A stretch of DNA of 62,734 bases, the filler included, from Sphacelaria rigidula (lineage: Eukaryota): NCBI GenBank assembly GCA_964200075.2. It is 9 parts of 9 records of this genome, joined end to end, with 100 filler letters (N's around TTAATTAATTAA, not from the genome) between each part and the next. Parts side by side here need not be neighbours in the genome. Positions count along the whole stretch, not along the records: positions 13,966 to 20,847 come from CAXNAA020017591.1; 8 more parts are not named here. One strand, written 5' to 3'. The notes beneath the pieces were generated by a model, which saw only the letters and a list, made by a program, of their open reading frames with translations, did no database searches and was not told the DNA's origin. Position 1 is the first letter of the stretch. Every line of letters starts with the position of its first letter. Positions 2,711 through 34,098 of this stretch are shown here, one piece after another. Position numbers and translations under genes: made by a program.

Positions 2711-2714
2711 TTAA

Positions 2715-2812: not shown

Positions 2813-2816
2813 TTAA

Positions 2817-2917: not shown

Positions 2918-3213
2918 TTAACGTGTACATGAAGTTGAGCACGCAAAGGGGTACATTCGTTCGAATGCCCGGACGCAAATGGAGTGACCTGCGGTCGAAC
3001 GGTGGAAGTCAGCGCAAACACACTGACTGTGTATATACGTGTTATACTACAACTATTGTCAAGTCAACTGCAGCATCGGCCTCCTCACTGCCAAAAGACA
3101 GAGAACAGGCCTAGCGGACCTTTTTTATGCTTACGGGAAGCTACATCACACTCGTCTTATGCGAGCGGGCTTGATGTCCCTGCAGAGGAAGAGGTCATCT
3201 TTCCGAAGTTTAA

Positions 3214-3312
3214 CCCTTAGACTGCGAGATTAGTCTTATCTGGATCATGCATACTTTTTTCAAGTGAAATTGATGCCGGTTCAACAGATGACCTACTCTC
3301 GCTGTCTAAGGG
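3214..3312 (-). mobile_element. piggyBac-like MITE copy 3 (reverse orientation)
   Basis: TTAA|CCCTTAGAC...GTCTAAGGG|TTAA; the interior is the reverse complement of copies 1 and 2. Confidence 0.85.
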
Positions 3313-6883: not shown

Positions 6884-6983
6884 NNNNNNNNNNNNNNNNN
6901 NNNNNNNNNNNNNNNNNNNNNNNNNNNTTAATTAATTAANNNNNNNNNNNNNNNNNNNNNNNNNNNNNNNNNNNNNNNNNNNN
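6884..6983. other. Artificial contig-join spacer (first of eight; others at 13866-13965, 20848-20947, 27830-27929, 34811-34910, 41792-41891, 48773-48872, 55754-55853)
   Basis: Each is 44 N + TTAATTAATTAA (stops in all six frames) + 44 N. The contigs between them are 6883, 6882, 6882, 6882, 6881, 6881, 6881, 6881 and 6881 bp, i.e. length-sorted. Confidence 0.98.
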
Positions 6984-7060: not shown

Positions 7061-8598
7061 GGCTGGGCCGGCCAAGACGCAAATTCGTGGTTTGCAAACC
7101 CCGTCTCAACCTAATTTTGCGAGTTAGACTTCGAAATTTGGTACGGAGGAAGAATAGGGCATGCTGAAACGCGGTCGCTCGGGACGAGAATATTTTTTTT
7201 GTTTTCGTGAGGTTAACCCTTTTGGAACCGTTGATGGAAAATTGACGATTTACATTTGACGTTTTTCGGGCAAGAAATGGTTGTTCTTCTACAGCCTTTG
7301 AGCAGACGATTCGCCCAGTGCGTGGTTTTTAGACCCGTGCAAATGGAACGTGGGAGAAAATAAGGTTCTCTATTCTACGGGTATGACGAATTTTTCGACC
7401 CGTCGGTGTTTTGTAATCCCCGCCAGATGGCATGACTGACCTTTCGTGAAGCGTGCTGCAGTACATGCTTCGTGCCGCATCGTAGCAAGCCTGCGCCTAA
7501 GTTGCAATAACAAAGGCGACGCCGACGGCATTTTTACCGCAGTTATGCCCCCGTCTACTGTCTGTATTCAGAGACCGTCACCGTCAGGCCCTGTGGGGAC
7601 GTGTTCACCTACTCCTCTGTACTGCGTGTGATCATGATATTTTCAGCTTATTTCCAGTGTAAACTCACGTCATGTACGTTACTGTACTCCGTCGTGCGCG
7701 TTTATACGGCACCACACTGCGGTTTGATGATTCCATAACGGTGACGAGGGTGCATGTACCCCGCCGATATACATACTCCTGGTGCAGCGTAGGCGGGGGC
7801 CGTTACTATGGCATATCCGACACAGGCTGTCACTTTGTAGGCTGTGATCTTGCCGCATATCTCATCCTGCGCTTTGTGCTGTACGTTTTCACGACACCCC
7901 CTCTATAATGCGGGTTGATCATGCCTGAACGTCGCACAGCCCCACTTTGTGCTGCGTGAGGTGTATTACTCCGGCTGGCGCTATCGCCTTCGGACCGGAT
8001 GTCCTCGTGGGCGGCGTTGGGGTGTCATACAATGATATTACACACCTTCTCTCCTCTTGCATGGAACACCGTAACATCGTTAGTCAGTTATGGTGGACTG
8101 TAGTTGATTGATCGATTGATTATCTCACAGTAGCTGATGGCAACAATCCAGCCCTTCGTCAGGAGCAGCAAAAAAAACAAGAGAAAAAGACAGAAGCAAC
8201 GGCCGCAGAAAGATCAGAAAGGGAGCAGGGATAACAACAAAACAACAACACCACCAACATCAAACAACAACAGCAATAACAATAGACTAACGACAAACAA
8301 ACTCATACACAAACACAAACACAAACAACACAAAAAGATAATGATCTCGCATTACGTAGCTAATTGCAACACTCCACCTCGTGATCAGAAAAAAAGGAGA
8401 AAAATGGAAGAAAACGTAAAGAAAGGAGTACAATAGACAAGAAGGCAGAGCCAGGCTCGGTTCCGGCGGCAGGGGGGGGGGGGGGGGCACAGACGAAAAA
8501 AAAGAGGCAAAGAAAAAAAAAAAAACCATCGGGAACAAAAGAAGAAACAAGCAGNNNNNNNNNNAAAAAGAAAAAGAAAAAAAAAAGAGAAGGAAGGG

Positions 8599-8638
<40 letters not shown>

Positions 8639-8699
8639 ACGAAAGAAAAGCAGACAAGAAAAAAAAAGAAACCATCAGGAACTAAAGATGAACAAATCA

Positions 8700-11190
8700 G
8701 AGATGGGAACCAAACACAATGCTCTTTAGGCAGAATGTCATTACCCTTGCAGTAGGTGCTTAGGCGGCGGGTGATTATCTTGAGGAGCACCTTGCCGACG
8801 TTTGACACGAGTGAAATTCCTCTGTAGTTTCCGCATTCCGTCCGATCGCCTTTTTCGTGGAACACGATGATGGTGGCATCCTTCCATTCTTGTGGTACAG
8901 CTGCTCCGCCCCAGATGTCAACGATGATAGTGTGGAATCTCTGTAGTCGGCTAGTGTCGTCGCCGATGAGGAGTATCTTCAGCAGTTCAGCCGGCAGTTC
9001 ATCTGGGCCAACGGCTTTTCCGTTGGACATATATCGTATGGCATCCGCTGTCTCGTCTACCGTTGGCACCTTGTCTAGCGATGTGTTCAGAAGTTGCGCC
9101 TGGTGTTGGTCGATGATTGCTGGGTTGAGGCGGGGCCGACTTGGTGTTGGGGAGGGTGTGAAACCACTGCACCCACCGCGGGCGGATGAGCTTAACGTCT
9201 CTGAGCAGTTGACCCTTCGTCGTCGCGGGTATATTGCTGCTGTGAGCTACATAGTTTCCTCCCTTCGACATCGATTCCCTTCAGGTGCCTGTAGAAACCG
9301 CGTTGGTCACCTCTCGCGATGTGCGCTTCAAGTCGACTGAGGTAGGCTTCGAAGAATCTCTCCACCGCATGTGCTTTAACACTACGAAGTTCCTTGTTGG
9401 TCTTTTTCAAGACTTTCTTGAGGTTTGCGTCAATGGGCGTTGACATCGATGCCCTCCGTGCTTTTTCCCTCGCCATCCATGCCGCGTGGATCTTTGCCTT
9501 GGTCTCGGCACTCGCGCACCAGCCGTGGGAGCCTCGTTGGTTTCTCTCGTGGGGCGCGATGTCTACTGCGGCAGATACCAGCATCTTGCTGAGGCCCGCA
9601 GCCATGTCAGCGGCGGTAGCATCTACAGGCAAGGGGTCGAGAGGGAAGACCGTTTGCAACGTCACTGCTCTCAACGTCGGGTCAGCCGTCAGCCTTTCAA
9701 GGTCGGCCGTTCGGCGTCTTGCTGCACGTCTCCGCATCTTGAGATTGGGCGCGAAGCGACCACGGAGCCGGACCTTTGCAGATACGAGGTTATGGTCAGA
9801 CTCGCGTTTTCCGAGTGGTGGGTGGCGGACGGAGATGTTGCGTACGAGTTTTCGGTCCGTCTGTCTTGTGAGGATGTAGTCAAGGCGATAGCATCCCTTC
9901 CCGGCGTTGGAGCTTTGGAACGTCTACGAGATGCCCCGCTTTGGTGTTCTGAAGAACGTATTTAGCACAGTAAGGCGCTGTTCCTCTGCAAAGGCCAGTA
10001 GCCTGTCACCGTTATTGTTCAGTACATCCCGTCCGTATTCGCCAAGTACCTTGCTATCATTCTCTCCACACCCCTCCCCTCGTTTTCCAGTGCGGGCGTG
10101 GGCATCCATCATGACGAATAGATGTTCCTTGCCAGGTGCTTGTGAGACGGTATCGGATACATCATCCCAAAAGTTGTTCTTGTCGCGCAGCGGAGCAGTC
10201 TCCGTCGGGGCATACCCAACCACAAATGATACTGCGTTGGATTTGCCGTGTAGTTCAAGTTTCACCTTCATAAGTCGAGCACTGAGGTACTCGACTGTGG
10301 CACCTTTTCCTCTCATCTCCTCCAGGATTGACTCCTTGATAGCGATCCCTACCCCATGTTGTCCTGCCCTTCCCTTACCCCCGCTTGTGTCACCAGAACA
10401 AAATACCGTAAATCCCGCCGCACTGAACACCGATTGACCATCTCTCCTGGTTTCCTGTAACCCTACGATATCGCATCCCAGATACTGACAAGGTTTCAGG
10501 ACAATCTCACTGTGGCCAACGCCGTACGCACCTTTGAAAGCAAGTGTGCGAACATTTTGGGTGCCAACTGTAAGCTCGCCGATCCTGGCCCTCGCCCTCG
10601 CCGTATTTTTCCTCTTGTCGGCTACCCTCCAATCTGCTCGTCTCCTACGTCTCTTTTTCCGTGCGGCGTGTTTTTTCTTCTCCTCCGTCCCTTCACATGC
10701 AAGTATATGTTCATGTTCTGAAATGGACACTGCTCCGTGCGTGCTTGTCATCAGACATGATTTCGGGGGCAGCAGTCCCGACATGCCTCGACCGGTTCCA
10801 CCACCGCATCGTTTCTTGTGCTCACGGACGTGTAGATACCTAGCAGCTCTACTCTCCTTGCTTTGTTTCCCACGCTTCCGGCGATGGTTACCTAGTGCCG
10901 CTGCTGCGGGCTGTGTAGCCGCGGCAATTTTTGCCGTTGGGAAAACCCCGTCGGGAAAAATTCCGCCGCATCAGGATTTAGTGCCGTCATCATCGTCAAG
11001 CGTAAGCAGCAGGTAGGGTAGCAAGATGGTTTCTACCCTATTACTGATTTTGCTGTTGTTACTACTACTATCGACGATGATGTCTTCTCTACACTTCAGG
11101 TGTGTGCGTGCAGGTTCGCAGTTCACACACCCGCCCCAGGCCAGGCAGCCCGGGAAGGGAAGAAGACGTATACAGTCACCCGAATGGCCA
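8700..11190 (-). mobile_element. RTE-clade LINE, decayed: 5' UTR, N-terminal extension, AP endonuclease, linker, first part of RT
   Basis: APE motifs GTQNVRTL, DIVGLQETRR, GVGIAI, GYAPT, MMDAHARTG, LNTFF, LDYIL, SDHNLV (9780-10580). RT N-terminal motifs [44 protein letters not shown] (8700-9069). Contains stops and frameshifts and breaks off near the low-quality stretch at ~8.5-8.7 kb. Confidence 0.95.
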
Positions 11191-12342: not shown

Positions 12343-12900
12343 TTTTGCTGCGCGAGACGGCGAAGCAGCGACGGGTGCCCTTGGTGGACGATTTTTTGGA
12401 ATGCAAGGGGTGCTCTCTGGCGAAGGGGTTGCGAAATCCACTTCACACACGTGTAGTGAGGCCGTTAGACAGAGTTTGCATGTATGCGTCTGGTTCGAAG
12501 TCGGGACAGAGTGCTGATGGGATGAGGTATTCATTTCTGAATAGGAATGATTTCCCGCGGAAAATCTTCATGTACTTGGGAAACATAAGTCGAACACCAC
12601 GAGCTTTGGAGCAAGCAGTTCCTAGCGGAAGTTGGATCTAAATGCATTCCCTCGGTGGTATAAACTATGAGATTTGATACTGGAGGCGAGTTTGCGGGGT
12701 CTTCTAGTGATTGATCTCGGTACGAGAAGAGTGATGCCATGGAGGGGAGCTACCGCGAAGCAGCGTGTTCGTTGACGTGGCTCTCCAACGATACACGTCC
12801 CGACAATGCCGACGTAGTTAGGGCTGCATCTCGCCATGACGAAAATCCTACCCCTCAAGGCTTGGCGAAGAGTATTGCGCATTTTCGAACACCTCAAACT
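12343..12900 (+). mobile_element. Ty1/copia relic: GAG-pre-integrase and integrase core fragment
   Basis: LLRETAK...ECKGCSLAKG...RPLDRV...SG....S..GMRY....DF.RKIFMY, then RFDTGGEFAG in another frame. Heavily disrupted. Confidence 0.8.
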
Positions 12901-13965
12901 CTACCTTAGACTCAGCTATCACGTACCCCAGGGAATCGAGCAGGGCGTTTGTCGGCCTTTGTGAATGCTGACCACGCTAAGTTGACTTATCAGCGTTCGG
13001 TGTCGGGAGGGGCGACATTTTTCTGTGGAGCCACCGTAGGACTTTCGTCTAGGGCCCACAAGAACTAATCTATCTTCAACGCATGCAAAACATGTGGCGA
13101 AGGGGGACATGGTGAAGGAGGCACTGTCAGCGGCGGTGCTGAAAGTCGTGCAACCGCACGAAGGGGAAATTATTCCTTTGTTGAACGGTATACAAGGACA
13201 ATCAGGGGGCAATACAGCTTGTATGTAATCCTCGAAGCTACCAGAGCAGCGAGCACATAAATGTGACATCATTTTTCAGGGGAAGAGAGTAGCGGCGCAG
13301 GTTTTTATTGGTGTGGTGATTTTCTACGATAGTCTCGCCAAAACCAACCCAACAGTGTCACGAAAAAAGTGGGCATACAGCACCTCATGTTGGGGTTTAG
13401 GCTGCATGAAGCGCCTCATATGGGGGACATGGCGCGACCTATTTGCAGGTGGGGTATGCAAATAAGAGCGTACAGGTCGCGAACGCCTCCAGAATCAATT
13501 CCACGACCCACCCAATTTCAAATGCTCATGAGCACACTAAGCAACAGGCATACTCCACAGTAGCGCACAGCAGGGCTGTAACACCGATCATATTTCTTTT
13601 GTTGCAGGGCAGGATGCTGTAAACGTAGGCGGCGATGAGTTACTTACTCCATACTATTGGGAATCGTAAAATCAATCGTTTTTTCTTGGGGCACGTCTTC
13701 AAGCCAAGTTCTTAGATAAAAAAAATATGTTGATGGTTGATGGTTGCTGCGGCATGGACAACATGATATTAGCTGGGTGTTCAAGTGTAATCCTCTCGAC
13801 ATGAGAGTGTACATTACGTAATGACAACCGTTCACACCCGCCGCAGCCCATGCGCAGGAATACAGNNNNNNNNNNNNNNNNNNNNNNNNNNNNNNNNNNN
13901 NNNNNNNNNTTAATTAATTAANNNNNNNNNNNNNNNNNNNNNNNNNNNNNNNNNNNNNNNNNNNN

Positions 13966-14038
<73 letters not shown>
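13966..14038 (+). repeat. (TAA)n microsatellite at contig start
   Basis: About 24 perfect TAA units. Confidence 0.97.
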
Positions 14039-15411
14039 CGGACCGAAAATATAGTTAGATAAATATTCTTAGAATATCGAACCACAACCGCGGATAACGA
14101 TCTTTTTGTCGATATCCCGAAAATGACACGATACGTATCGGGTATCGATATTCGATACGATACGACTGTTTTGTTATGGCCGCGGTGTACAAAACCGAGC
14201 AGTACACTGGCACACTGACACCCTCACTCACTATTGTAGGTCGCTTATATACCACATCTCCTAGACAGATTTTCAGCGCTCACTTCCTCCTCACCAGAAG
14301 CGATGCCAGGGCTGAACTGGGCGGCGTTGGAACCATCTCGTCGACATAAAGTAATCGAGCTTTGAAAATCGCTCCTGAGGGTGTGGTATCTCAAGCAACC
14401 TACGTACGGTAGTTTCCAGTGGACAGCAGGGGACACATGTACAGCAGCGGGTGGTGTACAAATTGACATCATAGCAGCGGCGGCATGCGGTGATACAGCT
14501 GTCTTACGAATATACAATATTTCGTCATCGTGCAAGAGGTAGTTGACCACAGCGGGCCGGGTGTGGTACTGGTCATATACACTGTTTTCATTTCTACGGC
14601 CACTATTCCGTGTGTTTCGATCGAAAGAGCGCATACCTCGACTCTGCATATTCACTAGAAAAGACAAGTGTCAAACCTTGAACACGCACAAACTCAATTG
14701 CGCGCTCTTTTTTCAATGTTTTTCACTACCGTTGACAGGCAACGTCGGCGGCATGCGTCAAGTTTGAATTTTTGGGTGCCAAAAAAAATATGTAGTATTT
14801 CCCTTGTCCAAAAAATCAAATACAACTAGCCATCCTCAAACAATCTTCAATTGATAAGATTATTCAAGTCAAGTGTGAAATTACCTGCTGTAGAATGTCT
14901 AAGCTTGCAACAATTAGAATGTCCAGACTAATGGATGGAAGGGAAAATAAATCCAACACTCGTCACACATGAAGGAAAGGCGAAGCGACAGTACCATATC
15001 CTCATACTCCGGAGGAATAGCTGTTTCCTACTGTTATCTGCAGCTTTGCATTGATCGTGACCTCATATCTACTCCGCCACGCCACCCGTATGTTGCCGTT
15101 GGTGAAGGCCCCCGCTGAATCAGATCACCAAACCCACGAGGCACCAGCGGTTACTCTGTCGCCTGCTATCCTACGAAGAGATACTGCATCCATTTGCACA
15201 CCGTGCAACCGCTCTACAGCTATACTCGCAAGTGCAACTTGTAAACACTGCGGAAATGCCAAACACGCAGTAGCAAGTTGGTTACTGCGGCGACTGCTTA
15301 TGTGGAAGAGCGCAACCTTTCTTGGACCTCGTGTTAGAATCGTCCATGTACCACCCGCCCCCACGTTTCCTGTGACGACGGTTTCGAGAAATTGAGCTAC
15401 TGCGGCGATAA

Positions 15412-15547
15412 AGGGGCCAAATATCGAGCGTATCGATATTCGATATTGATATTCGATATTGATATCCGATATTGATACATATCATATATGTATATCGGTT
15501 TCCTACGCTCCGATACCGATATGGCGTATCGCCGGTATCCAACCCTG
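15412..15547. repeat. CGATAT/ATATCG-rich element end, probably a non-autonomous hAT-type terminus; similar tract at 14040-14170
   Basis: Clustered CGATATT/CGATAC motifs ending in CCAACCCTG (CAGGGTTGG on the minus strand). Confidence 0.45.
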
Positions 15548-17919
15548 CTGCATACATCTCGAATCCGCCGCGTGTCTCACTCAACCGGCGCTTAATCCGC
15601 CACATCTTGCTCTGTATCTCTCTGCCGATTGTGGGGAAAACGCTCCGGCTCTTCCATCCTGCCGTACCCCTGTAGCTCCCGATTACCAACGTCTGCAGAT
15701 CTCGACGGGCAATGACGCGTCTAGAGCTGCACGCTGTCGCGACCCTTGGTGAGTTTCCAAGAGAAACCAGCTATCGCATGTGCGCAACGCACGGTACAAT
15801 CATCGCTGCCTGAAATCTAAAATAGCGTACGGAGTACAAAATCAGCATCTTGGCGATTCACGAGCATCTGCATGTCTGTCAAGCTTTGACCCTTGAGTCG
15901 CGCGAGACAATCATTTCGATCAGCCTGTACGAAAATGTTTCTGACCTCATCACACAGACTGAGTCCACCGCCTGGGAATTACACTCAACACCGTGTAAGC
16001 ACAGGGCACCGGCCAGATGTCTAGACCCTTCAGTAGCCACCCTGACACATCTCGTCAGTTCCTGACACAGAATCTACCACAGTATACTGTACTGTTGTGT
16101 GAGTCTAGGCAGACTGACATTCCTGGTCAGTAAATCGTACGTCCACCGTACTATTAATAGTCAAGGTCATGGACACGTTCACAAGGTATGATTGCACCTT
16201 GCAGCAAAGCGTATGAATTTGTTTTGAGGTATCCCTTTTGGAACCCTCCCCTCCTGTCCCCTGGCCAAACGTCTTATTATTATGAGAAGCCCTGACGAAG
16301 AGGAAAACATGGAAACAGAATAGGCCGACGGCAACCATTTTTTATAATGGAAGCCCGAAGAGGAATGTCCCCCCTGGAGAATTTGGGTAAGATTTGTCCA
16401 ATCATACCACGCAACGAATGAAGCGTGTCCAATTATATCCATCGACAATAATTAGCAAAACCACTATGAACATTCCATTCAAAAAATAGCAATGGGCTCC
16501 AGGGTCCAACCTGGCACGTTTGTATATTAGCATTTTTTGTACATTAGGGGAGCACCGCTTTGACGGGCTGCAGCATCGGGTGGCGAGTTTGCCAAGCCAC
16601 ACCGTACATACAGCATAGTATGGCTGAACCCAGCGAAGTCCCGTCACCACATGTGGAAGGCACAGTGGGTTGTGCGGGCGGTACATGGCGGGCGTAATCG
16701 CACGAGTCCGAACAAGCGATATACATGTACACGGGAGGGAGCCAACGGACACCGCCTACCGTAATCAGGCCAGATGAAAAACACTACAGTCAGTAAATGC
16801 AGTAGGTTATAGGATTGACTTGCGGCTACACTCCGTGCAAGAAGAAATATGGGCATGTCGTGAAAAGTTGGCCACGAGCGTAGACGGCACGAGACGATAG
16901 CGGTAGCCAGCGTCATGAATCTCATGCAGCATGAAGTATGTCTGTGCAAGGGTCGGGAACGATCAACCCGCGGTATAGATGTGGTGGGGTAACTGTGCCT
17001 TTCGCTACGCCGTTGTGTAATAGTTAGCCCGAAGTATGATGCTGTCGGCACGCACTTGCCAGAGCGCAGTTCTGTGCATGCCCCGAGTTATACAGAGATA
17101 TTTTCAAAATATAATACAGACATGACACGGAGCAGTAAGGTATCACCCCTGGGGTGACGGCACTTGGCAGACTCTACACCACAGTGACGGTGCATAACTG
17201 CAGGGCACATGGCGTCTGCGTCGCCTTTTCCCATTTTTCAAAGGGCGGGATGGTGCTGGCGGAACGTGCATGAGCGCGATGTTGTGCATGACGTGAGTCT
17301 GCAGTCGAGATTGCCCCAAACTGCTGTAAACACACCCAGTACTGTACAGGGCAGTGTCGCGGCACCCCCGGCGGCACGGAAAGGTGACTGCCTGGGATTG
17401 TATACACCGCCAGTTTATACATTTAGCGAATGTGCCATCGGCGTTGCCCTTGTTGCTATGACACTGCAAAGAGTATAAACTGCAGCGGGCAGGGCGTGCA
17501 GGTCAGGCGGGAAGCATGCTTCACAGAAGCCTGCCGCGCACTGTGGCCGGGGAAGGAGCTCATGAATGTAGAAATAAACGCCGACGGGTCCTGGACCTCG
17601 CCGCAGCAAGAAAATAAGAAACCTTCTCTTGTGCTACATGTCACTCGTACGGGTATGAAAAATACGCGTTTGGCCAAAGTTGTTGCGTCTAAGCTGTGAA
17701 CCATCAACCTTATCTTGCTCAAAAACCGTCAATTGCAAATGATCAATTTTTTATTGTGAGTTCCAAAATGGTTAATTACATATTTCTCAAAACAAGACTA
17801 TGGTTTCAAACACCGATAATATTGTGCTGTATCTCCCATATATTGCAGAACCCCCTGTTTCTTTTTCTTGCTCACATGTCGAGGCCGCTTCTCAGAGTAG
17901 ACAAAAAAGACTACATGTG

Positions 17920-18324
17920 AAAGTGCCTTTTTGGAGCGTTTACGTCGTTTTACGCCCCCAGAAAGAGCTGGGCGGATTTCGACACCTTGGAATGCCTTGC
18001 TGTCCTCGTTGAGACGGTCCCGGCACACCTGTGGGTTTTGCGATGCCCGCAGCTCCTTCGTTGCCCAAACTTACATTTTTCTCGGAGACCGCTGATTCTT
18101 CTCAAAGATCGGTCAAGTCCACGAAAATTCGCGAAGTCTTTGTGGACTTGACCGATCTCCGAGAAAAATGCAAGATGGGCAAGACACAAACTGCGACAAC
18201 CCGAAAAACGTACAGGTGAGCCGGAACCGTCTCAACGAGTACAGCAAGGCATCCCATGGTGTCACAATCCGCCTGGCTCTCTTCCACCACGTGAAACGAC
18301 GTAAAAGCTCCAAACAGGCACTTT
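17920..18324. mobile_element. Foldback (almost fully palindromic) element related to the 2058-2710 family
   Basis: AAAGTGCCTTTTTGGAGCGTTTACGTCGTTTTACG pairs with CGTGAAACGACGTAAAAGCTCCAAACAGGCACTTT. Perfect 16-bp central arms at 18107-18122/18142-18157. Shares the GAC(A/G)CCTTGGAA...CTTGCTGT.CTC.TTGAGAC motif with 2247-2281. Confidence 0.8.
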
Positions 18325-19754
18325 TAACAGCCAATTATAATTTTTGGGGTTGAACGCCGAAATGGGGTTCAAGTAGCATAACCGTTCTGCAGGGATGACG
18401 CGGAACAGCTACACCGAGCGGAACCACATTCTCCCCCGAAAACGTCTGCAGCAGTGAAGCGGTTGTGGCTAGGTGCACCGAACGAATGCGGTGTACACGC
18501 GTGTCGATGACGATATCACCAGAGAGACGAGCAACGGCAGAGAGGAAGCTCCTCGCCCGTGTCCTTTGTGTGTCCTCGCTCGGCGGTCACCAACCGCTCG
18601 AGAGACTGGCATCATGCACGTTACCAGCATGTACCCAATTTTCCATGCACCGGTAGGCAGGTTATATTGCTGCACAGCCCCCCAGAAACATCGAGGTGCA
18701 GAGGGTTGTCGTCTCTTCTTGTCTGTGGAGCTTACCTATGCAAAGATCGATTTCTCTCTGCCTATTTATTTGGACAGGACGCGCCTCTGTGAGCTGCAGA
18801 ACACGTCGTTGAAAAACAGGGCGATGTTCCCGTCACCGCTGCTCTTCTCTGTCACACACATGCCAGCAAGGACGGTGCTGCGGCAATGACAGATCCAACT
18901 TGAACTTGGGGGGTGATATGCATCGTTGATTTTTCCCGACATGTGACCCTGTGCGTGCACGACGACAAAAGCGTGCCACACGCCAGTTGCGGGGGTGTAT
19001 GGTAGATCAAACACTTGTGGACATCTTCTAGCCATGCGGGGTGAAAAGATACCTATGGTGGTGACCTAACTGTTGCTGGCGTGGCGCATGGGGGTGCCTT
19101 CATACTGCAATCTGGAGCACACACCCGCGACCGCGGTACAGTAGCTTTTAAGAATTCCCATGTGAGGAGGTCATCCATTACAAGCTGGGGCGAGGTATAT
19201 TTCACGAGGAACAAGAGTGCTCTGTGATCAACCACTTATCGTTGCATTTGAGACCGGTGCCATCAGCCGCCGACCGCAAAGGTCTCGTGGCTTTCAGGCA
19301 ACGCTGGCGACAGTACGGCAGGCAAACCCGATCATAGCTAGCTTTCGTTGCTCTACTGTACTGACTGTCGTCTGCACAGTCACCGTAACAACATGCACCG
19401 AAATTCATAACGGCTGTAAAATTAGACAGTTCAATTTTCTCAGCTAATTCCACACAATATAAAGCACTCTCATGAGCTGAAAAAGGGTGGCTTTCCCGCC
19501 CCCCCCGCCAAGAATTGAAGAAAATACGACCGGGGGTTTGCAAGTGCATATAACACTGACGGGGCACAGATAGTTTTTCCGAGTGAAAATCCGTGTTTTC
19601 CCACCTGCAAACCGTTTCATGCGCATTGCTTTCTATTTAGGACGGTAACCTGTCCAGTTCTGTTCAGTTCTGTACTGATTGTCTGATGCCAGTCCCAGCA
19701 AAGTTTGGTATTGCTGTTCGACAGTATCTTCTTCACTCTGGACAATACAATATG

Positions 19755-20640
19755 TAGTATATTTTTCCCGCTCAAAATGTCGAAGCGTCGTGTTGTCCAT
19801 ATATGTTTTGCGGGCAATATGATGGCACGAGAGACACGTCAATATATATCGTGCCATCAATATATCAAGGCTGACGACATGCAATGTGTATCGACTGAAC
19901 AATTTATCACGACACGCGCCACCTCAATATATAATGAAAGAGCAATATGTTGGTGCGGTAAGGCACCAATATATATTTGTTGAGTAATATATTGGCTGCC
20001 ACAAGAGGTCAATGTATATTGAAGATTCAATTTACTCAACACCCGAAGCGTCAATATATATGTCCGCCCCGATATGCCGTGCGTCAGCGCGTCCAATATA
20101 AGTCATTGAGCGGACAATACACGAGGGAACCGATGGTCACACTGCAGGTTGGTTTAGCAATTATATTTATGATTTAAATGTAGATTGAAAACTGTATTGA
20201 AATTAGTATGGTGGGCAGTTTTATGTTCGCGGGCGCCAATGGAAGATGTATCACCACATGCCGAAAACGCTCAATATATTCCTCCGCGAGCGTGTTCAAT
20301 ATATATTTGCTGCACATTAGCTATGCGATGAAGATGCGCAGTATGTATATTGAAAAAACAATAATTTTGCAGGGTTGATGTTCTCTATATATTATGGTGA
20401 AAAGATGTTAAGCATCGCTTCGACTCGATATACATATATATATATATATATTGGCACTTCAATACCTACACGGCCGGTATGCACAATATATATATATATA
20501 TATATATATATTCAGTGTTTTGTTCCCGGAAAAAATGCATGTCCAATATATTTTGTCATGTATTACTTCACGATCATGACACGAGAAATATATATTGCTG
20601 CCTCAATGTCTCCGAGGACATTTCAACACAATATTTATAT
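19755..20640. repeat. Regularly spaced dual-palindrome array, 42/43-bp period, unique spacers
   Basis: Motif A (consensus CAATATATATTG) at 19755, 19797, 19840, 19882, 19925, 19967, 20010, 20052, 20094, and again at 20297, 20339, 20544, 20586, 20629. Motif B (consensus CAATATATTG) lies exactly 18 bp after A in the first eight units. Confidence 0.85.
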
Positions 20641-22100
20641 ACAAGATCGCTCTGCTTCGCATCACACGCCCAATTTTCCCATTCTTTCTCACATTGAAAT
20701 GGAATGGAAAAGGGACAGAAGAGACAGACGCCCTCAATGAAGAAAAGCAAGAACGGCATACAAGCAGAAGAAGGGACTGTAGCCAAAATACACCAAGGCG
20801 TATTAGATGTAGCATGTAGGATCCTGGATGATGACCAGGGGACAAGGNNNNNNNNNNNNNNNNNNNNNNNNNNNNNNNNNNNNNNNNNNNNTTAATTAAT
20901 TAANNNNNNNNNNNNNNNNNNNNNNNNNNNNNNNNNNNNNNNNNNNNCTTGCACGTTCTGGGCAATTCTCAGCCACCGAGATCAACTGCCTATATACCGC
21001 TTCTTCATCCCCGCCTACTACATACATGTTAACTGTACAATGCAAGTCATCGGAATAGGGATAAACAGAATTCATGACGGTAGCTCATTTTGTCTTTCCA
21101 CGACCCGCCTGGGTTTAGTGCCTCGTGAAAATGAGCACATTGTAGCATGTACACTCCTGCCCGGTTTTGTCCGGTCCACCCTGTGTTAGTATAAATTACT
21201 GCGTTTCAATATAGAATTGGGACCCGAAAAACACTCCGGAAACACTCGGGAACGCTATACTAAGTGCAAGTAATACCATATTGTGTTCGTTAATCATAAA
21301 AAACAAGTCTTCGAGCGACCTGCCCAATCATCGCGAGACGAAATTTATCGACCAGACCCGAACGACTAGCGCAGGGATTGTTGTCGAGTGTGATGCCATT
21401 GTAAAGATCGTGTGGGGGCCCTGTCCTTGGCCTAGAAAAGCCTCCCCAGGTTTCTAAGTGCAGGGTGGTCGCAGCTTGTTCTTATGGTGTCTTCCACACA
21501 AACGTCCGTTACAAAGATCATGATATATCTAGTCACACAGCACGTGAGGAGACAACAAAACTTTCAATGCATAGCTGAGACATACACGAACGAGTGTATC
21601 ACGTTTCAGGGCGAGAAACCGTTGCCGCAAACGAAACACGACGGTGAAGGCAAAATCACAAGCAGCAAACTCGTACTGCAGTGTCATTTTTGTGAGGGTA
21701 CGAGCATCGCGGTGGTTTCAAAGGTCGGGATAATTTTACATAACGCAAACACTGATTCCAAGTAATTCAATAAACGTTTTTGACCAGTCCCTCCGCAAAA
21801 TACAAGGCACTAGATAATACAAGCTTGATCTCAGTATGCGTTCCGGCATACATGGGTTTACGGGCCTTCCGAGGCCCGCAGCCGCAGTAGATTACAGTTC
21901 GGCGGCGGGTTGATATCCAGGAAAACGGCGGCCCGACAAGCGGTGGGTGCTCTATCGTTTGGTATACGGTTTAGTGTACGCAACGTTTGTTTCGAGCGTT
22001 GCCGTGCCCGCGGTATGGTTGCGTCCGCCGGGGTCGGTGTTGCAGTCTTATTCCCGCTCAGCTTGCTTCTGCATCTTGCGTGGCTTTTGGATAGGGGGTA

Positions 22101-25100
22101 TGAGCCAAGATAGTGCCAAGGTAGTCGTTGTGTGTTGTTTCATGCTGCGCGGACGTAACCACCCCCAAAAGAGGACTGTTCCCGCATCAATGCTGCTGCC
22201 CCCCCCTTATTGGCTGCCGTGCTGTTGTTCTAGATGACTTGTGTTGATCGGTGCCATACAGACCGTTGCCACGCGCGATGCCCGCCGGCTAGCCAGGATT
22301 GGCGCATGTTGCGATACAGATACAGTTGGTACCGGGGAGATAACCAAGCTTTCTACCCACGAGACATCATACAGCTGACGTAGACACGGATCGTGCGCGA
22401 CCTCGTGTGTTCGAGTGCTGCTTCCTTCTGGAAGTATACCGTACGCTTGCTTCACGACTTCGGGCTTGTTAAAATACTATCGATACTGGCTGAATGTGTT
22501 TTTCTAGCTCCTCTGTTGCCGCTGTCCTGGGCTGCAGCAAGCTAATAAAGGGAAATGCAGCCCACACCAGGCCTGAACAAATACCCGAACAGCTCAATCT
22601 TGATCTCTCTGCGGCACATGAAGCTTGCGTAACGCACGTGCATCCACCAACAGTCCAAATCAAATCTGTACAAGAGTCATGGAAACGAACGACAAAAAGG
22701 CTGATTCCAGTTTCACCTTTCGGGACCGGACCCGTAGTAGGCAAGAAGTGGGTCAGACGTGAACGTGATCACCGTGGGGGTGACCAGTTCCTCGGGGGAT
22801 GTTGGGCCGCCCTGAGATTGGGCTCTTCCTGGCATCACCCCGAGTTGTCTACTATCGTTGGCATTACAGGGCCTCCGTGATCAGGTCTTTTCGGACCGTT
22901 CCTACCTTGTACCTGCATGCGCTGGTTCTTCACAAATGTGTGGCATCAGTCTCTGATATGTCACTGCAAAGGAAGTCATCGCCAGCCTCGGAGTCCCTCC
23001 GGCATCAGGACGACATCTTCAACGATAGTCTCCCCCGTAGGTCTCTGTCTACCCTAGTGATACGCCTTCTTCATATTGGCGACACCAGAAAACAAACTCA
23101 GGCAAGACAGTCATCAGAAGAAAACGCAACATTACACCATGCCGAGAAAAAAAGCCGTCTCACAAGACATCCAACCAACATGGCGGAAACCACGCGGGAA
23201 CCAACCCGACCAGCAGAAAAACAACTCAAGTGAAGGACAACGCAAACACCATCGAGCGTCAATCCAAATATGTCAACCCATCTACTTCGGCCTCGTCGGC
23301 AAAGGCTGCAAAGTCAAGGGACGCAGCCCAGCCAGCTATAACTGTGTTGGCTAACACGTCCATGCCAGCCCAGTCACCATACCACCACGGGGGGGAAGAT
23401 GGCAGTGACGACTCTGACAATTCTGAACAGAGCATTGATATTCGTCAAGTATCCACGGGACGGCTCGATGTGTTACGCGATTCTTCGACCTCGTCCTCAC
23501 CCTCTCCGCCAGCCCCAGCATCACAGTCCGTCATGAAAGAGCGGGCAGCGGAACTAGCACACAACACGCTGGAGAGGAGCGGTAAGGAGAGGACGAAGCC
23601 AGCTCCATGGGTAATGCAAGCGTTAGGATTCATTATACCTCAGGACAACGGGATCGCACAGGTATCGACGTCTTGCAACCCGGTAGCACCAGAAATTGAA
23701 CATCCGAGTAACAGTTGGATGCTACAGAACAATACGAATAACCCCTCGGATAGTGTCAACGAATCCGTCGAAAATTCCGGCGTCGAACTGCCTAACACTA
23801 CGCCAATCCAATTCACAGAGAACTCTACTACCCCGACTTGAGATCCGCCAAGAAGCCTCGCTACCGTACAGGAAGATAATCACAACATAGAGACTCTGTC
23901 CGGTTCAGTGCTGACTCCGCCGCTTATAAGCCACAGCAGCACTATGGGAACTCAAATATTCTCGATGAAACAACCGGATCTCTCGACAACGTTAGTCCTA
24001 GAAGGGAAACGGAGTGAGGACGTGTCTGCAATTCTCGGCGCGTTTTTAATTTGAGTTCGAATTCACGCTCCTGACGACGGCGCAGAATCCACGTTACAAC
24101 GCCATGCCATAAAACACACACCACGTATCCTCAGAGGGCCACCTCAAAAGTTGTACACTTCCATGGGGAGCGGAAAAGTAGAGCGGCGTCCACCGGCAAT
24201 GATACAAGACCTCAAATCGAGAGGACAAGATACTGCGCCCAGAGCACAGAAGTGGATCTAGTAGCAAAACCCCCAGTACGGTGAGATCCGCCACGGGTAA
24301 ACAAGTTCAGCAGTCATGCTCGTATACGTTTTGTAAGTGCAGGGAACACCATACGCTGGGAAACTACCAACAGGCCAAGAAGCACAGGGAGGAAATGATC
24401 GCCCTTGGCCTTTGAAGGTGCCCGCCGCGGAATCCCTCGCCTGGCGAGGGGAAAGTGCGTTTAGCGAAAAGAGTAACTACCATAGCACAGTCGACGTTCA
24501 AGACAAAGCAGGTAGCACGCATGACGCTGAGTAGTGATGAACCGAGGGAAAAGCTCTCTCGTCGGTAAGATCGGAAAGAGCGTGTGGCTTTCTGGAAGTA
24601 CAGTACAGTAGCCCCGTCAATGAGATCGAGTGCGATTTCTCACCAAGAGGTAGTAAAAGTACATGCTAGAGTCAAGCAGAAGCTCAAAGTGAGCAACACA
24701 AGTCGAAAAGAGGTGCCGTGTAGCCAGCCTCCGTACTTCGAATAGTTTCTAAGCAGCCGTTAGAACAGCTGTAAAGAAGCGATACATCGGACACTAGTCC
24801 AAAATTCGTCGAAAATGAAGCTCAACTCGTAGTGTCATGTTACATTCTGCGCGGTACGCCAAGGAATCCGTAATGTCATGTCCCATTTCAACACATGTTC
24901 AACCTGCCACGAGAATGAACGACTCTATACTTAGGGGCTGTTGATTCCACATAGGAACTACCCACAATTCCTCTAAAAGATCGTTCCATCACATAGATTT
25001 TTTTATTTAGCACCTGGATATTTGAATCTGGATCTTTAAGTGGAACAATCACCGTTCAACAACGAGGAGAGTGGGCTTGCTTGCTACAACGTAGCCCTTC

Positions 25101-27750
25101 CGTAAAGTCATGCAAGAGATTGCATGTAGAGGTGGTTACAGAGGCTGGTACGCGGGAGCAAGAGTAAGATGTTGAGTAACCGGCATCGACACCTGGGCGC
25201 AGCCTCCCACAATGCTTCGTGAGTAAGACATGTCGGGAAAAATAGTACAAAAACCGATTACATTTTTGACTCAAGATTCTCAACAATTCGAAGCTTTCCA
25301 CGTGTCATCGTTAGCTCGATACCCGAAGGGACCTGCAACGATGCATCCGGCTTCGGTAAGAGTCCAAGTGCCAGCTAGGGTGACTATAGTGCTGTGCAAG
25401 GCGATGGCCTCCGACCTACCTATTATCAGCCTCAAGTTCACCCATTCGCATCCCACTCTGAACACGGCGGACATCAAATCAGTTCCAAACGGGTCTTTGG
25501 CTCTTAGAAGCGCGGACAATTCACCCATCAAAGTAGTCGGCTTCATTCGTTTCGACCTCACGTTTGGGGGAAAACCATGCCCGTTGAAACATTCCTTTTG
25601 CGCGATTTGGGTCCATACTGCACGCTGATCAATAATTCACTGATGGCAGCGTTTGGAGGCATTTAGACTGGGAAGCTGAGACATTGTCGTTCCGAAATTC
25701 CAGTGTTAGAGACAAACCTACACACAAGACACGGAACGGGCAAAACAATTCTACACGCAGGGGCCATGATACATGTTCCGTTGTCAGAGTAGAAACTGCG
25801 GCGGAACTTATCCCGGTATATCTGCGAAGAAAACGTTGTGTTCCTCCGCAAAGTGAGATGACCCTTCATATCGGATCTGATGAACATCCTGAAGTGACAT
25901 TCACTGCAATAATTGAGCCGCACGTCGTCACAGAATAGGACGTTCAATCGTTGGACATACCACAGGCTTTCAACCGTCTGATCGTGGCATGAACGGTTTG
26001 TACATGGTCAGCGGTGAATAATGCAGCCATGGTTCAGTTCGCCAATACATCCAGCAGGCATGTCTGTATTGAGCGAAACACTCTGTGAGGATACATCACA
26101 CCTAAATCAGAAGTCCGGACAGTGAAAACGACCGCCACAGTGCAGTCGCCGAAAATGAACAAAACACTACCGACACCCGTCAAGAGTTGGGGAAGGCACT
26201 CAAAAATACTTTTACAAACACCGCATTTTCGCAAGAACATGAAGACCAAGTCCTCGAACGTTGCACTAAATACTGGGCAGTCTTTTCGCTTTCACCGCAG
26301 GAGATAGGGTGCTGCAGAAAAGGTGAAGCTACATCTCCACTCCGACGGGATACACAACCAGTCGACAGACCTCCCCACAGCGCCAACCCAAGAGTACAAG
26401 AAGTCATCGACAAGTGTGAACACGAATAGGAAAGAGACGGCATTATTCAGCAAAGAGCTAGCCCTAGGGGCTCTGCGGTGACTGTTGTCGCTAAAAGTGA
26501 TGGTACAGCTAGAAAACAACCTTCGTCCCGAGCATAAATTAATGGGTATTCAATCGCTTCCTATTCGGATAAGCGTCCTCCCTGTTGTTTTTTTCACGAA
26601 AAATTGCTTTCTCTTTCGCACACTTTGGACCGGAAAGTGGCCTCCTGGTGTACATGAACGATTTAATCGCGTTTTCTCCTTGGGAAAGCCACCTGACTCT
26701 ACTTGAGGACAAATTCAAGCAGCGGGCCTCACCCTGAAACCGTCAAAAGTACAGTTTGGGCCAAAGGAATTCAAATATCTAGGGCATGCTTTGTCAGCGA
26801 AGGCATTAAGATAGGCGATGACCGTATTAAAGCAATACTGGACCTACCAAAACCGACAAACATCAAACATTTGTGCTCATTGGTCAGCATGATTAATTTT
26901 GTGAGACGGTTCACATTAAACGTGGCCGAGGTCACTGCACTCTTGGTTCACTGCACCCTTTGTTGATCTCACAAAGAAAGAAGCGCTCAAGAAGTAGCAA
27001 CGTTGGAAGGCAGAACATGACGAATCTCGCGCGGAAGTGAAACGACTTTTGACGACTGCTCCAGTTTTACTCTTCCCTGACTTCTCTAAAGAATTCGTGG
27101 TTCAAGTTGATGCCAACAATCAAGGAGTGGGGGCCCACCTATGGCAAAAGAAAGGCGATGACCAAGCGATCATACCTAACTTCAGTCGACGTTTTAACGA
27201 TGCCCTAAGGCACTATCTGCGACCTTCAAGGGATGCTATGCTGTAATTTTGGCGATCCAACATCGGCGGTCTTTCTCATGGTGCAGGCATTTCATTCGTG
27301 TGACGGACCACGCGGCGCTGCGATATCTGTATACGATGCAAGATACAAGAAATATCCTTATAAGGTGGGCTGTTGCTTTGTAGTAATATGACTTTACGAT
27401 GCAGCGTAAGCCGGGAAAACTAAATTCCATACCCGACACTCTATCATGACTCTTTAAATTTGAGCAACAGCAGGAAGACGAAGTTAAACCACTACTTGCT
27501 CCGATTTGTCGTAATGTGCTGGAGGGCCCCGCAATACACACCACAAAACTGCACCAGCCGTTTTAATTCTCGGTGGACGAACTGGTTGATCTAAAATCAA
27601 TACAAAGCGACAGGGAATCGTTTACTGTAAAGTCTGTCTACAGCAGCCCAACCAATGTCTCTATATCTGTAAACAGGGAAAAGTTGGCAAGCAGAACAGG
27701 CAAGAAAATATAGCCCGTACATGACACTTTCCACAATACCCACCCCCCCC
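22101..27750 (+). mobile_element. Ty3/gypsy LTR retrotransposon, strongly decayed (LTR, PBS, gag-like region, protease, partial RT, RNase H)
   Basis: Protease-region LRSADNSPIKVVGFIRFDLTFGG (~25500); RT end LKPSKVQFGPKEFKYLGH (~26735); RNase H LLTTAPVLLFPDFSKEFVVQVDANNQGVGAHL and VTDHAALRYL (27037-27330); PBS-like TGGCATCAGTC at 22941. Many stops; the RT catalytic segment is not visible. Confidence 0.88.
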
Positions 27751-27929
27751 CTAAAATCAGCAATGAGTACGCTCCCCCCCCCCCCCCAAAAACCAACCCA
27801 ACACTTCCACCAAACAATCGTCATACAAANNNNNNNNNNNNNNNNNNNNNNNNNNNNNNNNNNNNNNNNNNNNTTAATTAATTAANNNNNNNNNNNNNNN
27901 NNNNNNNNNNNNNNNNNNNNNNNNNNNNN

Positions 27930-28660
27930 CGTGTGGAGGGCAAGAACGCGTTGGAGAACTACGCGTACTCGATGAGGAACACTGTGAACGAGGAGAAGGT
28001 GAGACAGTCGATGTTGGTTGCACCCACCTACGCGGGAAGGAATCGCTGTGAGTGTGGAGCGTGTGCCGGAAATCACAAGTCGGCGTTTAGTATTGAGAGT
28101 TTTGTATTCCGTGAGGTGGCGTTTTGTCCCCCGAAGGAGATGAATGTGACGGGGGGATGATACGTCATTGCATCGCAGGGGTTGAGTGGAGGCTGACATG
28201 CCGCAGTCGAGATGATGAAGGGTTGGGTTGTGTAATATCGAGCTGACCGCAATCGATGATGTGTGATGTGTTGACGTTGAGAATGTACGTGAAGGCGGAC
28301 CGGTACATTGGTGTTGGCAGAAACGACAAATTGGTTGTGTGTTGAATTCCCGCACAGGTGTCGGCGCAGCTGGACGAGTCGGACAAGACGACAATCGAGA
28401 CGAAGATCTCTGAGACGATCGCGTGGTTGGACTCGAACCAAAACGCGGAGAAGGAGGAGTACGAAGAGAAGCAGAAGGAGCTTGAGGCCGTGTGCAACCC
28501 GATCATCCAGAAGATGGCAGCTGCGGGCGGCGGGATGCCCGGTGGAATGCCCGGTGGGATGCCGGACATGTCGGGTGCTGGCTTCCCCGGGGGCGATGGC
28601 GGAGCCCCTGCCCCTGAGGCGGAGGCGGACGCCGGGCCGAAGATCGAGGAGATTGACTAG
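27930..28660 (+). CDS. HSP70: Cytosolic heat shock protein 70, 3' part (exons <27930-27998 and 28358-28660; GT-AG intron 27999-28357)
   Basis: [23 protein letters not shown] / [50 protein letters not shown]...[12 protein letters not shown]...GPKIEEID*. Phase-0 splice with canonical sites. Confidence 0.97.
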
Positions 28661-30748
28661 ATTATCTGGATGTTGAAAGGTTGCCGACAGAGGTTTCACA
28701 ACGCGCGGGGTGTCAAGCACACTGTACTGTTGTATATTGTAAGTGGAATTGACTCGGGGACTCGGGCTGATTTTGAAACCGAGATGGGCCCGTATTTCGC
28801 GATTGTGCCGTGTCATCACGCCACTGACCGGTGTTTCGAGGTCTTGGGTCGAGGATACTTTATGTTGCTACCGGTAGGGGGGTTCATCATTTCTATTTCG
28901 ATGTTTTCGTCTACCGTGCCCCGCATTCGAGAAATTGTGTAGACCCTGCTTGAACCGGCGATGCACGTCATGCTAAAATCGTCCTGAAACGGTGTAGCGA
29001 CCTCCTGGTCCGATCCTGAGAGCACTAGAAGCTCGTGTTGCTGTAAAAAACTAGAGGGGCGTCCCTTACGAAGTCTCATCTGGTGGAGTTTGCGAGGCGA
29101 AAAGTATTATCGGAGTGATAATTGGATATCCCGAAAGTGGGATGTGCATGCGGGATCAGGCCTTGGCCTCGGTGGTTATGGAGTGTCGTCGAAGTATTGA
29201 TTTATGCTGTAAATGTGGCAAAAACCGTGGTCAGTCATGAAAAGAGGAGCTTGGAACAAGAGTCCAGTGTACCGGAACGGGGTACAGCCACGGCTAACGG
29301 GTTTGCCTAGAGGCGGATTTGAGCTCCAGGAGCAATATCTTATCGACACGGTCGAGATGGGCCGTGACCCACATATCATATTGATCGTCAAACCAAGGGG
29401 CATGTACCCATCTGCCCAAAATTTTGGACCCACATTTTCGCTGATGAAACGCCATGTCTGGTGATCCCTATACATACAGGAGCTGGCTTCCATACTAGAC
29501 TGCATGAAACCCCCCATCGATGCATTCAGCGGATAATGACGCATTTTCATGTGGACATTCTCTGGAGCAAGGGGAGATACGATATCACTCATCTCCACCT
29601 ACCTCGTCATGGGGAACCACAAAGATGTGCCGAAGAAATATGCACCCATTTTTATGTGGGTCTCCTGACGAAAGGTTCTCAACTGTAGTAGAAGGTCCTG
29701 AACCAGTGAATCAAAATGAAGAAATACGTACCGAACCTACCTTGTCTATGCGTTCGAGAGCTCACACACCAGGTTCCAACACGAAAATTGAACGTGAGCC
29801 GGTGATTGGCCTGCGAAATACAGTTCCCGGTATCCACCGACTCGATTTTTCATGAGGCTCATGCTCTTGGAATTCAAGTTGGGCTCTGGAAGTTGGTATG
29901 GACCAAAGAATGGAATCGGCCCGCCCGTAGAGGGTAGAAACATGGCTGAGTATGGATTCGGCTCGTTCACACAGCGCCCATCCATACGGAAGAATGAATC
30001 GACTCGCTCACACAGAAGCCAAAACTGGTCTGTTATGAGTGGCCGCACGAACGATGCGCTATCACTGAGTGTAGAACCGGTCGGAGCACACCCAGTGCAG
30101 ACCCGGTCCGCTTCTACAGAATCTAGAGACGGATCGTTCACATCAAATGTAGAACCCCCTCTCCCCCCGGAACATGTGTACGGGACAGAACCAATTTTTT
30201 TCATATGGCAAGGGCATTTCGGTGACCCCTGAAAATTGACTATTTTCTACAAATGTAAAAAAACCTATTGTTTGATACTTCAGTATTTTTTTCTCTTGTG
30301 CCCTGTGCACTGTCTATACTAAATTTCAGGACCCAACTCTATAAGTATGACAAAGCATGGGCCTGCACACTTCAAATCCACCCCTAAGCTGGCCCAGCTC
30401 GCATACCTCGCCCGAAAACTAGGCTTTCTCACCTTCTCGTTGGCGAATATCCCAGCGACGCAAGCAATCTCATACGTCTCTTCTGACTTTGACATCGGGA
30501 CGACCTTGTGTTCCATGACAGATGAGTGCTCGAAATATCGAGGAACTACACGGACATTGCCGTGTTTGATATATTGACACTCACGGCAGCCGTCAACCAC
30601 ACCACACTGATGAGGGTAGTTTACTCTCCAAAATAAGTTGCATATTGCTTCTCACCGGTTTTTGTGGCGTCGCTCTTATTTTTTTTCATTATTGTGGTAA
30701 TGTGTCTGGTAAGGAATAGCAGGGACGGTATTGGAAAGTCAAGCCTAC

Positions 30749-33453: not shown

Positions 33454-34098
33454 CTAGGACGATGATGCACCACCCTTTCCCCCTGAGCCTGCACTGCTTC
33501 CCGCCCTTCCCCCTGAACCCGCATTGTTTCCCCCTCTCAAGCCTGCACTACTGCCCGCTCTTCCCCCAGAGTTTGCACTGCTCCCCGATTTCCCCCCCGT
33601 GCCTGTACTGCTGCCAGCTTTCCCCCCCCCCGCGCCGACCGCCCCTCCACCGCTCCCGACTGGCCGCCCCCGCGCCCCTGAACTTGATCCCCCTCCCCCT
33701 CGTCCTCCCCCATTTGCACCCGCACCCCCCCGGCCGCCACTAGCACCCTTTCCACTGGCACCCCCTCGCCCCCCGGCGCTTGACCCTCGAGTAATGCCCA
33801 CGCCCCGGCCACCGCCGCCACCGTTCTTGCGTCCCCTACTGCTCGAGGCTGAGGAGCTCCTTATAACTTCGGTGCGTTCGATATCCATGGCGCTGCTGCT
33901 CGTCGCGGACGATGCTGTGTTTTGTTCGAATTCCGATTCGGAGCTGGTGTCGCTGTCCGAGCCCTGGAGGATGGCTTGCTCCGCTCGCCACATGGCTTTC
34001 CACTGCTTGTAGTGGTTGGTCTTTTTCCACATGTAGTAAAACTCGACCACGTCCGCCACCGTCTTGCCGTCTATGTGTGCCGCTACCTTGTGGAACAC
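33454..34098 (-). CDS. Last exon of a SANT/Myb-like domain protein (ELM2-SANT corepressor type) with a Ser/Gly/Arg-rich tail
   Basis: After the acceptor ...CCGATACAG: VFHKVAAHIDGKTVADVVEFYYMWKKT, matching the SANT C-terminal KTV.D.VEFYY.WKK pattern. 645-nt open frame to TAG. Confidence 0.88.
   Translation of the reverse strand: MFHKVAAHIDGKTVADVVEFYYMWKKTNHYKQWKAMWRAEQAILQGSDSDTSSESEFEQNTASSATSSSAMDIERTEVIRSSSASSSRGRKNGGGGGRGVGITRGSSAGGRGGASGKGASGGRGGAGANGGGRGGGGSSSGARGRPVGSGGGAVGAGGGKAGSSTGTGGKSGSSANSGGRAGSSAGLRGGNNAGSGGRAGSSAGSGGKGGASSS

Follow-up and report, generated by a model that had tools for sequence, protein, structure and literature searches.

A periodic array of two alternating AT-rich cores, A and B, set between GC-rich spacers, lies near the end of one short contig of Sphacelaria rigidula. 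We analysed it within the window, i.e. the whole 62.7-kb stretch of DNA (62,734 nucleotides), which is a chain of nearly equal contigs of ~6.88 kb joined by linkers of the form N44 + TTAATTAATTAA + N44 every 6981-6982 bases (6884-6983, 13866-13965, 20848-20947, then every ~6982 bases). Adjoining pieces are not genomic neighbours. The features on which the analysis rests are the following:

13966-20847, no strand assigned: array contig, the sole genomic context of the array, which lies 200 bp from the contig's end
19488-19747, no strand assigned: left flank, which may belong to the array's repeat family; contig depth is of similar order and the boundary is undefined
19748-20136, plus strand: regular array of nine 42/43-bp units, used for register, mismatches per unit, column conservation and lags
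20137-20271, plus strand: degenerate, AT-richer stretch in which only vestigial motifs are left and the phase is lost
20272-20640, plus strand: irregular continuation of the array, with cores at 20272, 20297, 20484, 20544, 20586 and 20629 (repeat families D5, I4 and I5)

Layout and periodicity of the array

Within the regular array (19748-20136) a unit consists of an A core resembling CAATATATAT, a 6-nt spacer, a B core resembling CAATATAT at +18 and a GC-rich spacer of 14-15 nt. An earlier account of this DNA, made from the sequence alone (hereafter the sequence-only reading), had listed the unit starts, their periods (42, 43, 42, 43, 42, 43, 42 and 42 bp) and a set of spacers, all of which are indeed in the sequence. 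In the 42/43 register the cores align over 19797-20094, and the units at 19755 and 20094 are weaker; units one, two and nine of the regular array are degenerate. The mean period between 19797 and 20094 is 42.43 bp, which corresponds to 4.04 turns at 10.5 bp per turn. In a k-mer distance scan run over the entire window, the array windows stand out at lags 85 and 42, and in the lag analysis motif identity peaks at lag 85 (0.62), which is why we take the true unit to be a 42+43 dimer of 85 bp. Tandem Repeats Finder leaves the array uncalled even at a score of 30 and sees just the two (AT)n runs within it. The same k-mer scan picked up hidden periodicities elsewhere in the window, of 105 bp at ~2401-3300 and of 48 bp at ~61501-62550, both of them uncalled by Tandem Repeats Finder at a score of 80.

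Exact matches to CAATATAT number 14 across the window against 0.99 expected, a count reached in none of 100 shuffles, and 12 of the 14 fall within 19840-20597. The array cores are all in direct orientation and amount to ~20 repeats over 0.9 kb. Past 20137 the placement of B at +18 is lost (4-10 mismatches). The sequence-only reading had the register resuming after ~20270, and this is right as far as local spacings of 42/43 bp are concerned, which do recur; the phase, however, is shifted, since the distance from 20094 to 20297 is 203 bp and no multiple of 42.4. The (TA)n expansions reported inside two A motifs are real: A cores are expanded to (TA)n at 20428-20453 and at 20484-20513, the repeat runs proper lying at 20428-20451 and 20486-20511, and the two expanded cores together form an AT hairpin.

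Two further repeats on the array contig deserve mention. The contig opens with a perfect (TAA)24 microsatellite (13966-14038), and a 13-bp tandem repeat lies at 15431-15477 (3.6 copies, 94% matches), the reverse complement of which contains the A-core-like string CAATATCG. CGATA-rich text resembling the latter is also present at 14130-14165, with no extended similarity to the array region.

Conserved cores and chance-level spacers

With the nine units placed in a fixed register, the A core has a pairwise identity of 0.70 against a null of 0.33 and the B core one of 0.56 against a null of 0.28; neither value is reached in any of 2000 shuffles. In contrast, identity of the 6-nt spacer is 0.218 against 0.231 in shuffled controls held in the same register, and that of the 14-nt spacer is 0.250 against 0.273. 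GC content likewise separates the two compartments, at 0.56 and 0.63 for the spacers and 0.21 and 0.31 for the motifs. The description of an array that keeps motif and spacing among unrelated, GC-rich spacers therefore holds within the array. Spacer identity is 0.27, 0.26 and 0.25 at lags 42, 43 and 85, where the background is 0.262, and a gapped comparison yields only a faint above-chance spacer likeness (reached by 5-6 of 400 shuffles) in segments that include motif edges. The spacers do not align to one 42-bp monomer; spacers that did so had been put forward as the mark of a decayed minisatellite. The CpG observed/expected ratio is 1.39 in the array, compared with 0.98 in the window; since CpG is undepleted, the spacers, GC-rich as they are, do not represent hot spots of CpG decay.

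The two motifs had been described as palindromes, of 12 and 10 bp, and this part of the description stands only in half. The idealised 12-mer and 10-mer have 0 and 0 exact occurrences in the whole window. The nine A sites are 1-4 letters off the ideal, and the same holds for the eight B sites that lie at +18 in units one to eight, which bears out the reported offset of B without yielding one exact ideal B; in the ninth unit B is 8 letters off. By column counts, the 5' part, CAATATAT, is retained in 7-9 of the nine units and the 3' ATTG half in 4-6 of nine. Since the 5' half is kept and the 3' half is poor, what recurs is a direct repeat of a half-palindromic core, and a palindrome conserved in one half makes a symmetric dimer site less likely. 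Conservation is best in the letters CAAT (8-9 of nine units), which is not a slippage-prone dinucleotide run.

The spacers also carry inverted repeats. Those of at least 7 bp with at least 4 spacer letters number four against 0.35 expected, and none of 500 spacer shuffles reaches four:

19820-19830/19849-19859, no strand assigned: perfect 11-bp inverted repeat of spacer letters flanking an A core
19978-19987/20032-20041: spacer-borne dyad, 10 bp
20061-20067/20110-20116: spacer-borne dyad
19950-19956/19963-19969: spacer-borne dyad

The arms of the dyads follow an A core and a B core closely on the 3' side, in neighbouring units. These dyads may be traces of inverted duplication or may reflect a real requirement for hairpins. 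Folded as RNA, the segment 19797-20136 is somewhat stabler than its shuffles (z -2.71 on the plus strand and -2.39 on the minus strand), and a similar stability on both strands is what DNA dyads would give.

Copies, coding content and relatives of the block

The public runs in which the stretch occurs bear the label of one organism and that of 'algae metagenome'. Contigs from four public runs of the same organism were aligned to 14040-20847 at an identity of at least 85%, at which run X1 yields 26,640 matching contigs and run X2 yields 20,828. The X1 contigs fall into identity classes of 3026 at 99% or above, 7006 at 95-99%, 10367 at 90-95% and 6241 below 90%. Nearly the whole contig is repeated DNA, with segment depths that differ more than 100-fold and many loose ends. 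It has a low-copy look only at 15629-16082, where summed depth is 126-282 in X1 and 54-101 in X2, and where contigs that match exactly have depths of 71-86 and 25-32, respectively. Over the four array bins, summed depth is 26,452-61,134 in X1 and 12,498-29,784 in X2, ~100-550 times that of the least-covered bins in the two runs, although summed depth is not a copy number. Judged from these contigs, the number of copies of the array block is probably of the order of hundreds. The bin over the left flank (19488-19714) has a summed depth of 30,048 in X1, compared with the 26,452-61,134 of the array bins.

Summed depth is higher still over two other repeats of the contig. A ~405-bp foldback (MITE-like) element with nested inverted repeats occupies 17920-18324, its arms pairing 17920-17954 with 18290-18324 at 91% and 17964-18042 with 18202-18280 at 85%; bin 17899-18125 has a very high summed depth in X1 (154,343, which is not a copy number), and another contig carries a diverged, partial relative at 2180-2582. 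The most abundant repeat of the contig is 18353-19260, with a summed depth of up to 2.2 million (X1, bin 18353-18579); loose ends cluster at 18464/18466 and at 19044 and mark repeat boundaries, and it contains no Pfam domain.

The spacers had been called unique. Within the array they are, but many other copies in the genome contain them too. Stretches of several units with their spacers are covered by dozens of different contigs at an identity of at least 85%. The variant spacer positions listed in the regular array are 19873, 19874, 19896, 19938, 19939, 19981 and 20087; at each of them, 9-87 distinct X1 contigs carry another letter, at 35-71 letters from the contig end, so these contigs cross whole units, spacers included. 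One 265-nt contig of run X6 matches 19810-20003, i.e. ~4.5 units, with 19 differences and 2 gaps. In one X1 contig, the 70 bases between 19834 and 19905 are replaced by 27 other letters, a net change of -43 bp or one unit, which is the behaviour expected of a tandem array. Since the copies share spacers, the spacers are not unique in the genome and must have diverged from each other before the family spread. The sequence-only reading had proposed that many copies with identical spacers inside a known transposable element would make this an ordinary subterminal binding array; copies with shared spacers there are, within a carrier element to which we could put no name. X6 and X8 contigs cover 19810-20003 and 20105-20293, and the two runs, only guessed to be RNA, may be DNA.

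When the window copy is compared with most copies, all seven differences listed in the regular array fall in spacers (40 of 901 rows listed; two pairs are adjacent). Among the sites that differ from other copies in X1, 269 start from A/T and 301 from G/C, a per-base excess of G/C-starting differences of ~1.26-fold at 47% GC.

The array contig has no recognisable protein domain. Its 98 stop-to-stop frames of at least 45 aa (13966-20847) match no Pfam family at cut-off in a scan with E up to 0.1, and the Nop domain is absent from them; a protein-database search with the 98-aa frame that runs across the array gave one candidate, which is not significant. No Rfam family is found on the contig at gathering scores. 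At E up to 1, Rfam gives only sub-threshold matches to miRNA models at 20421-20519, which are the (AT)n hairpin, and one at 20666-20718. Over 893 bp, box C (RUGAUGA) has 0 matches on either strand, and box D (CUGA) has 2 per strand against ~3.5 expected, i.e. it is at chance. The sequence-only reading had seen neither box C/D motifs nor an effector gene, and we concur.

Neither did we find element ends. CACTA or TAGTG is missing from 19300-20847, the contig ending at 20847 so that an end may lie further out; inverted or TIR partners for the array flanks on the contig are limited to 11-17-nt matches; and no terminal inverted repeats, target-site duplication, LTR or transposase turned up on the array contig. 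This is in line with the earlier statement that no TIR or ORF that would explain the array had been found.

Frames with domains lie on other contigs of the window. A LINE-like endonuclease/RT remnant occupies three frames at 8287-10970 on the minus strand, with Exo_endo_phos just under the cut-off, and a Ty3/gypsy pol (RVT_1, RT_RNaseH, Integrase_H2C2 and rve) is split over overlapping frames at 42924-47024 on the plus strand, with the RVT_1, RNase H and integrase domains at 42924-46404. In the ESM Atlas this pol falls among generic RT/RNase H clusters drawn from many phyla. A 312-aa frame at 33454-34392 (minus strand) has a long Gly/Ser/Ala-rich tail derived from a 30-bp tandem repeat at 33477-33628 and no Pfam match at E <=0.001.

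Relatives of the array proved equally elusive. Within the 62.7-kb window, blastn of the contig reveals no second array copy, just (TAA)n, (AT)n and three short matches to other repeats. The pattern scan that had been suggested brought up no related array in metagenome, genome and viral contigs, only chance matches. A three-core pattern hits 17 metagenome loci, none of them related and all showing by blast only (AT)n microsatellite likeness; the core-only pattern gives 7 single matches in viral contigs, which is chance level; and the pattern with the short spacer gives 8 single matches in bacterial contigs and 1 in a viral contig, without blast similarity to the array contig. Searches of the literature for the motif strings returned, among the matches listed, only primers or unrelated uses.

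Interpretation of the array

What the analysis shows is a periodic array with conserved cores amid chance-level spacers, in a high-copy block whose copies share their spacers and which has no coding or known-RNA content. From this we infer mobility, dispersal as opposed to a tandem macro-repeat, a class of element, protein binding and a type of binder. The reading we favour, with a probability of about one half, is that of a phased protein-binding array carried in a dispersed, probably mobile, non-coding repeat. It agrees with the earlier suggestion of a phased protein-binding array of about four helical turns per unit, serving a transposase, a recombinase or an origin protein; such an array is the best explanation of motifs kept against chance-level spacers, a 4.04-turn period and a high-copy repeat. 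The non-coding, presumably dispersed block of ~0.9-1.2 kb would be a non-autonomous transposable element or part of one. Its ~20 cores of the CAATATAT type, arranged in A/B pairs, would recur once per 42.4 bp, that is, per four helical turns, so that all A sites would face one side of the helix. The cores are putative sites for a sequence-specific protein that would assemble cooperatively along the array, and this binder may come from an autonomous partner, as its transposase or DNA-binding protein, or may be a host factor that the element recruits. Cores and spacing would be kept by selection on the master copies that propagate, while the letters between the cores would drift to saturation. 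The setting is transposon-rich, with the LINE-like and Ty3/gypsy pol genes on other contigs of the window, and the array has the many diverged copies that characterise dispersed repeats and transposable elements.

Among known systems, the array is most like the subterminal or internal binding-site arrays of transposons. In Spm/En, the protein TNPA is described as binding subterminal repeats that act as cis-determinants of transposition (PMC2613891). Like the array, the TNPA sites of CACTA/En-Spm elements are a short motif repeated many times across several hundred bp of non-coding, mobile, multi-copy DNA that is variable between the motifs. However, CACTA/En-Spm elements have CACTA terminal inverted repeats, which were not found in 19300-20847 (the contig ends at 20847), nor was a transposase found on the contig; and their motifs, bound by an element-encoded protein, are both direct and inverted within a few hundred bp of each end, whereas those of the array are direct only and come in A/B pairs. 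The array is strictly phased at 42.4 bp over at least eight units, which is probably more regular than the subterminal repeats of En/Spm. MITEs such as Emigrant/Lemi1 also carry subterminal motifs.

The gypsy insulator offers a second parallel: it is described as having a consensus repeat in 8 or 12 copies within 340-430 bp, with Su(Hw) binding to some of them (PMC3022720). It is transposon-borne and illustrates how long arrays of binding sites for a host factor, in this case a zinc-finger protein, can travel with a mobile element. It differs from the array in its motif, in its period of ~30-35 bp and in its known place in a coding LTR element; the array has no linked LTR element or coding capacity. 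As to the class of the putative binder, HD-Zip sites are pseudopalindromic (CAATNATTG), with the half-sites CAAT and ATTG around an AT centre. The array has the same CAAT/ATTG half-site, but its centre has 4-6 AT letters instead of 1 and its 3' half-site is poor; this likeness could therefore serve as a lead only.

The alternative to be taken most seriously, although we hold it unlikely, is that the array is a functionless, decayed minisatellite carried passively in the repeat family, its 42/85-bp tandem having arisen once in a master element; the AT cores would then seem conserved only through slower mutation or regeneration by (TA)n slippage. As in transposon-internal minisatellites, the array has a head-to-tail period of 42, 43 and 85 bp, one copy differs by one unit length, and microsatellite growth within units, seen in the (TA)n of two A cores, indicates that slippage acts here. 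The faint spacer likeness under gapped alignment points the same way, and so do the private changes of the window copy: all seven of those listed in the regular array are spacer changes, which, on the assumption that a copy decays neutrally once inserted, hints at a lower mutation rate of the cores. Minisatellite units, however, are alignable over their full length, whereas the array spacers (20 of 42 columns) are at chance at every lag and Tandem Repeats Finder is silent, and yet the non-slippage letters CAAT are the best kept. Furthermore, since A/T and G/C sites change at near-equal rates (~1.26-fold) and CpG is undepleted, mutational bias cannot explain the contrast between cores and spacers. 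Cores that are functional are favoured because neutral decay, if uniform, cannot have scrambled 20 of the 42 columns and passed over the remaining 22.

We consider it improbable that the array is instead a host chromosomal cis-element, such as an origin, an unwinding element, a matrix attachment region or a centromere/heterochromatin repeat, the AT cores of which would bind a host architectural protein. Helix-phased AT cores between GC-rich spacers, the high copy number and the missing transposon hallmarks would all suit such an element. Against it, the more than 100-fold depth mosaic with many loose ends is typical of nested interspersed repeats, and the copies are 85-99% alike as after a transposon burst.

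That the array gives rise to small guide RNAs in the manner of CRISPR or TIGR systems, or to ~42-nt phased small RNAs, is highly improbable: the two-repeat, two-spacer layout, the above-chance short spacer-borne hairpins and the fold stabler than shuffles are offset by a multi-copy block whose spacers are not unique (copies of the order of hundreds would share them), by a box C count of 0 and a box D count at chance, by 98 frames without a Nop or other domain, by the lack of an Rfam family, by a fold stability alike on both strands and by the eukaryotic host. The TIGR-like precursor suggested by the sequence-only reading, and with it the CRISPR/TIGR-like reading as a whole, is rejected on the grounds of the missing box C, the missing Nop or other gene, the eukaryotic setting and the multi-copy spacers. 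The likeness to TIGR-Tas and CRISPR, namely two alternating repeats and two spacers per unit, is superficial. TIGR-Tas systems are described as having an adjacent gene for a Nop-domain Tas protein and as producing tigRNAs of 36 nt (PMC12045711), compared with the 42.4-nt unit of the array; they further differ in having box C/D and a prokaryotic or viral host. CRISPR arrays have near-identical repeats of at least ~23 nt, genome-unique spacers and a cas gene, whereas the array cores are 8-12 nt long and degenerate and its spacers are multi-copy.

Returning to the phased binding array in a mobile repeat, a bolder and doubtful version of it is that the block represents a new family of non-coding mobile elements, the body of which would be a helically phased scaffold of ~20 paired CAATATAT sites, spaced at four turns from pair to pair, with selected sites and spacing, saturated spacers and hairpin dyads. 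Such a scaffold might support a cooperative protein filament or single-strand/hairpin recognition and could serve in transposition, replication or partition. To our knowledge, filament or hairpin recognition of this kind is undocumented for eukaryotic transposons.

The array opens no eukaryotic CRISPR- or TIGR-like system, and in windows made of concatenated short contigs the copy number of a candidate array should be checked before its spacers are called unique. If, on the other hand, the array is the binding scaffold of a mobile element, it would present a clean natural case in which selection acts on the identity of the sites and on their helical phase and leaves the spacers free to evolve. 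The CAATATAT core would then be a handle with which to look for the partner protein of the element in a repeat-rich genome that has been little studied.
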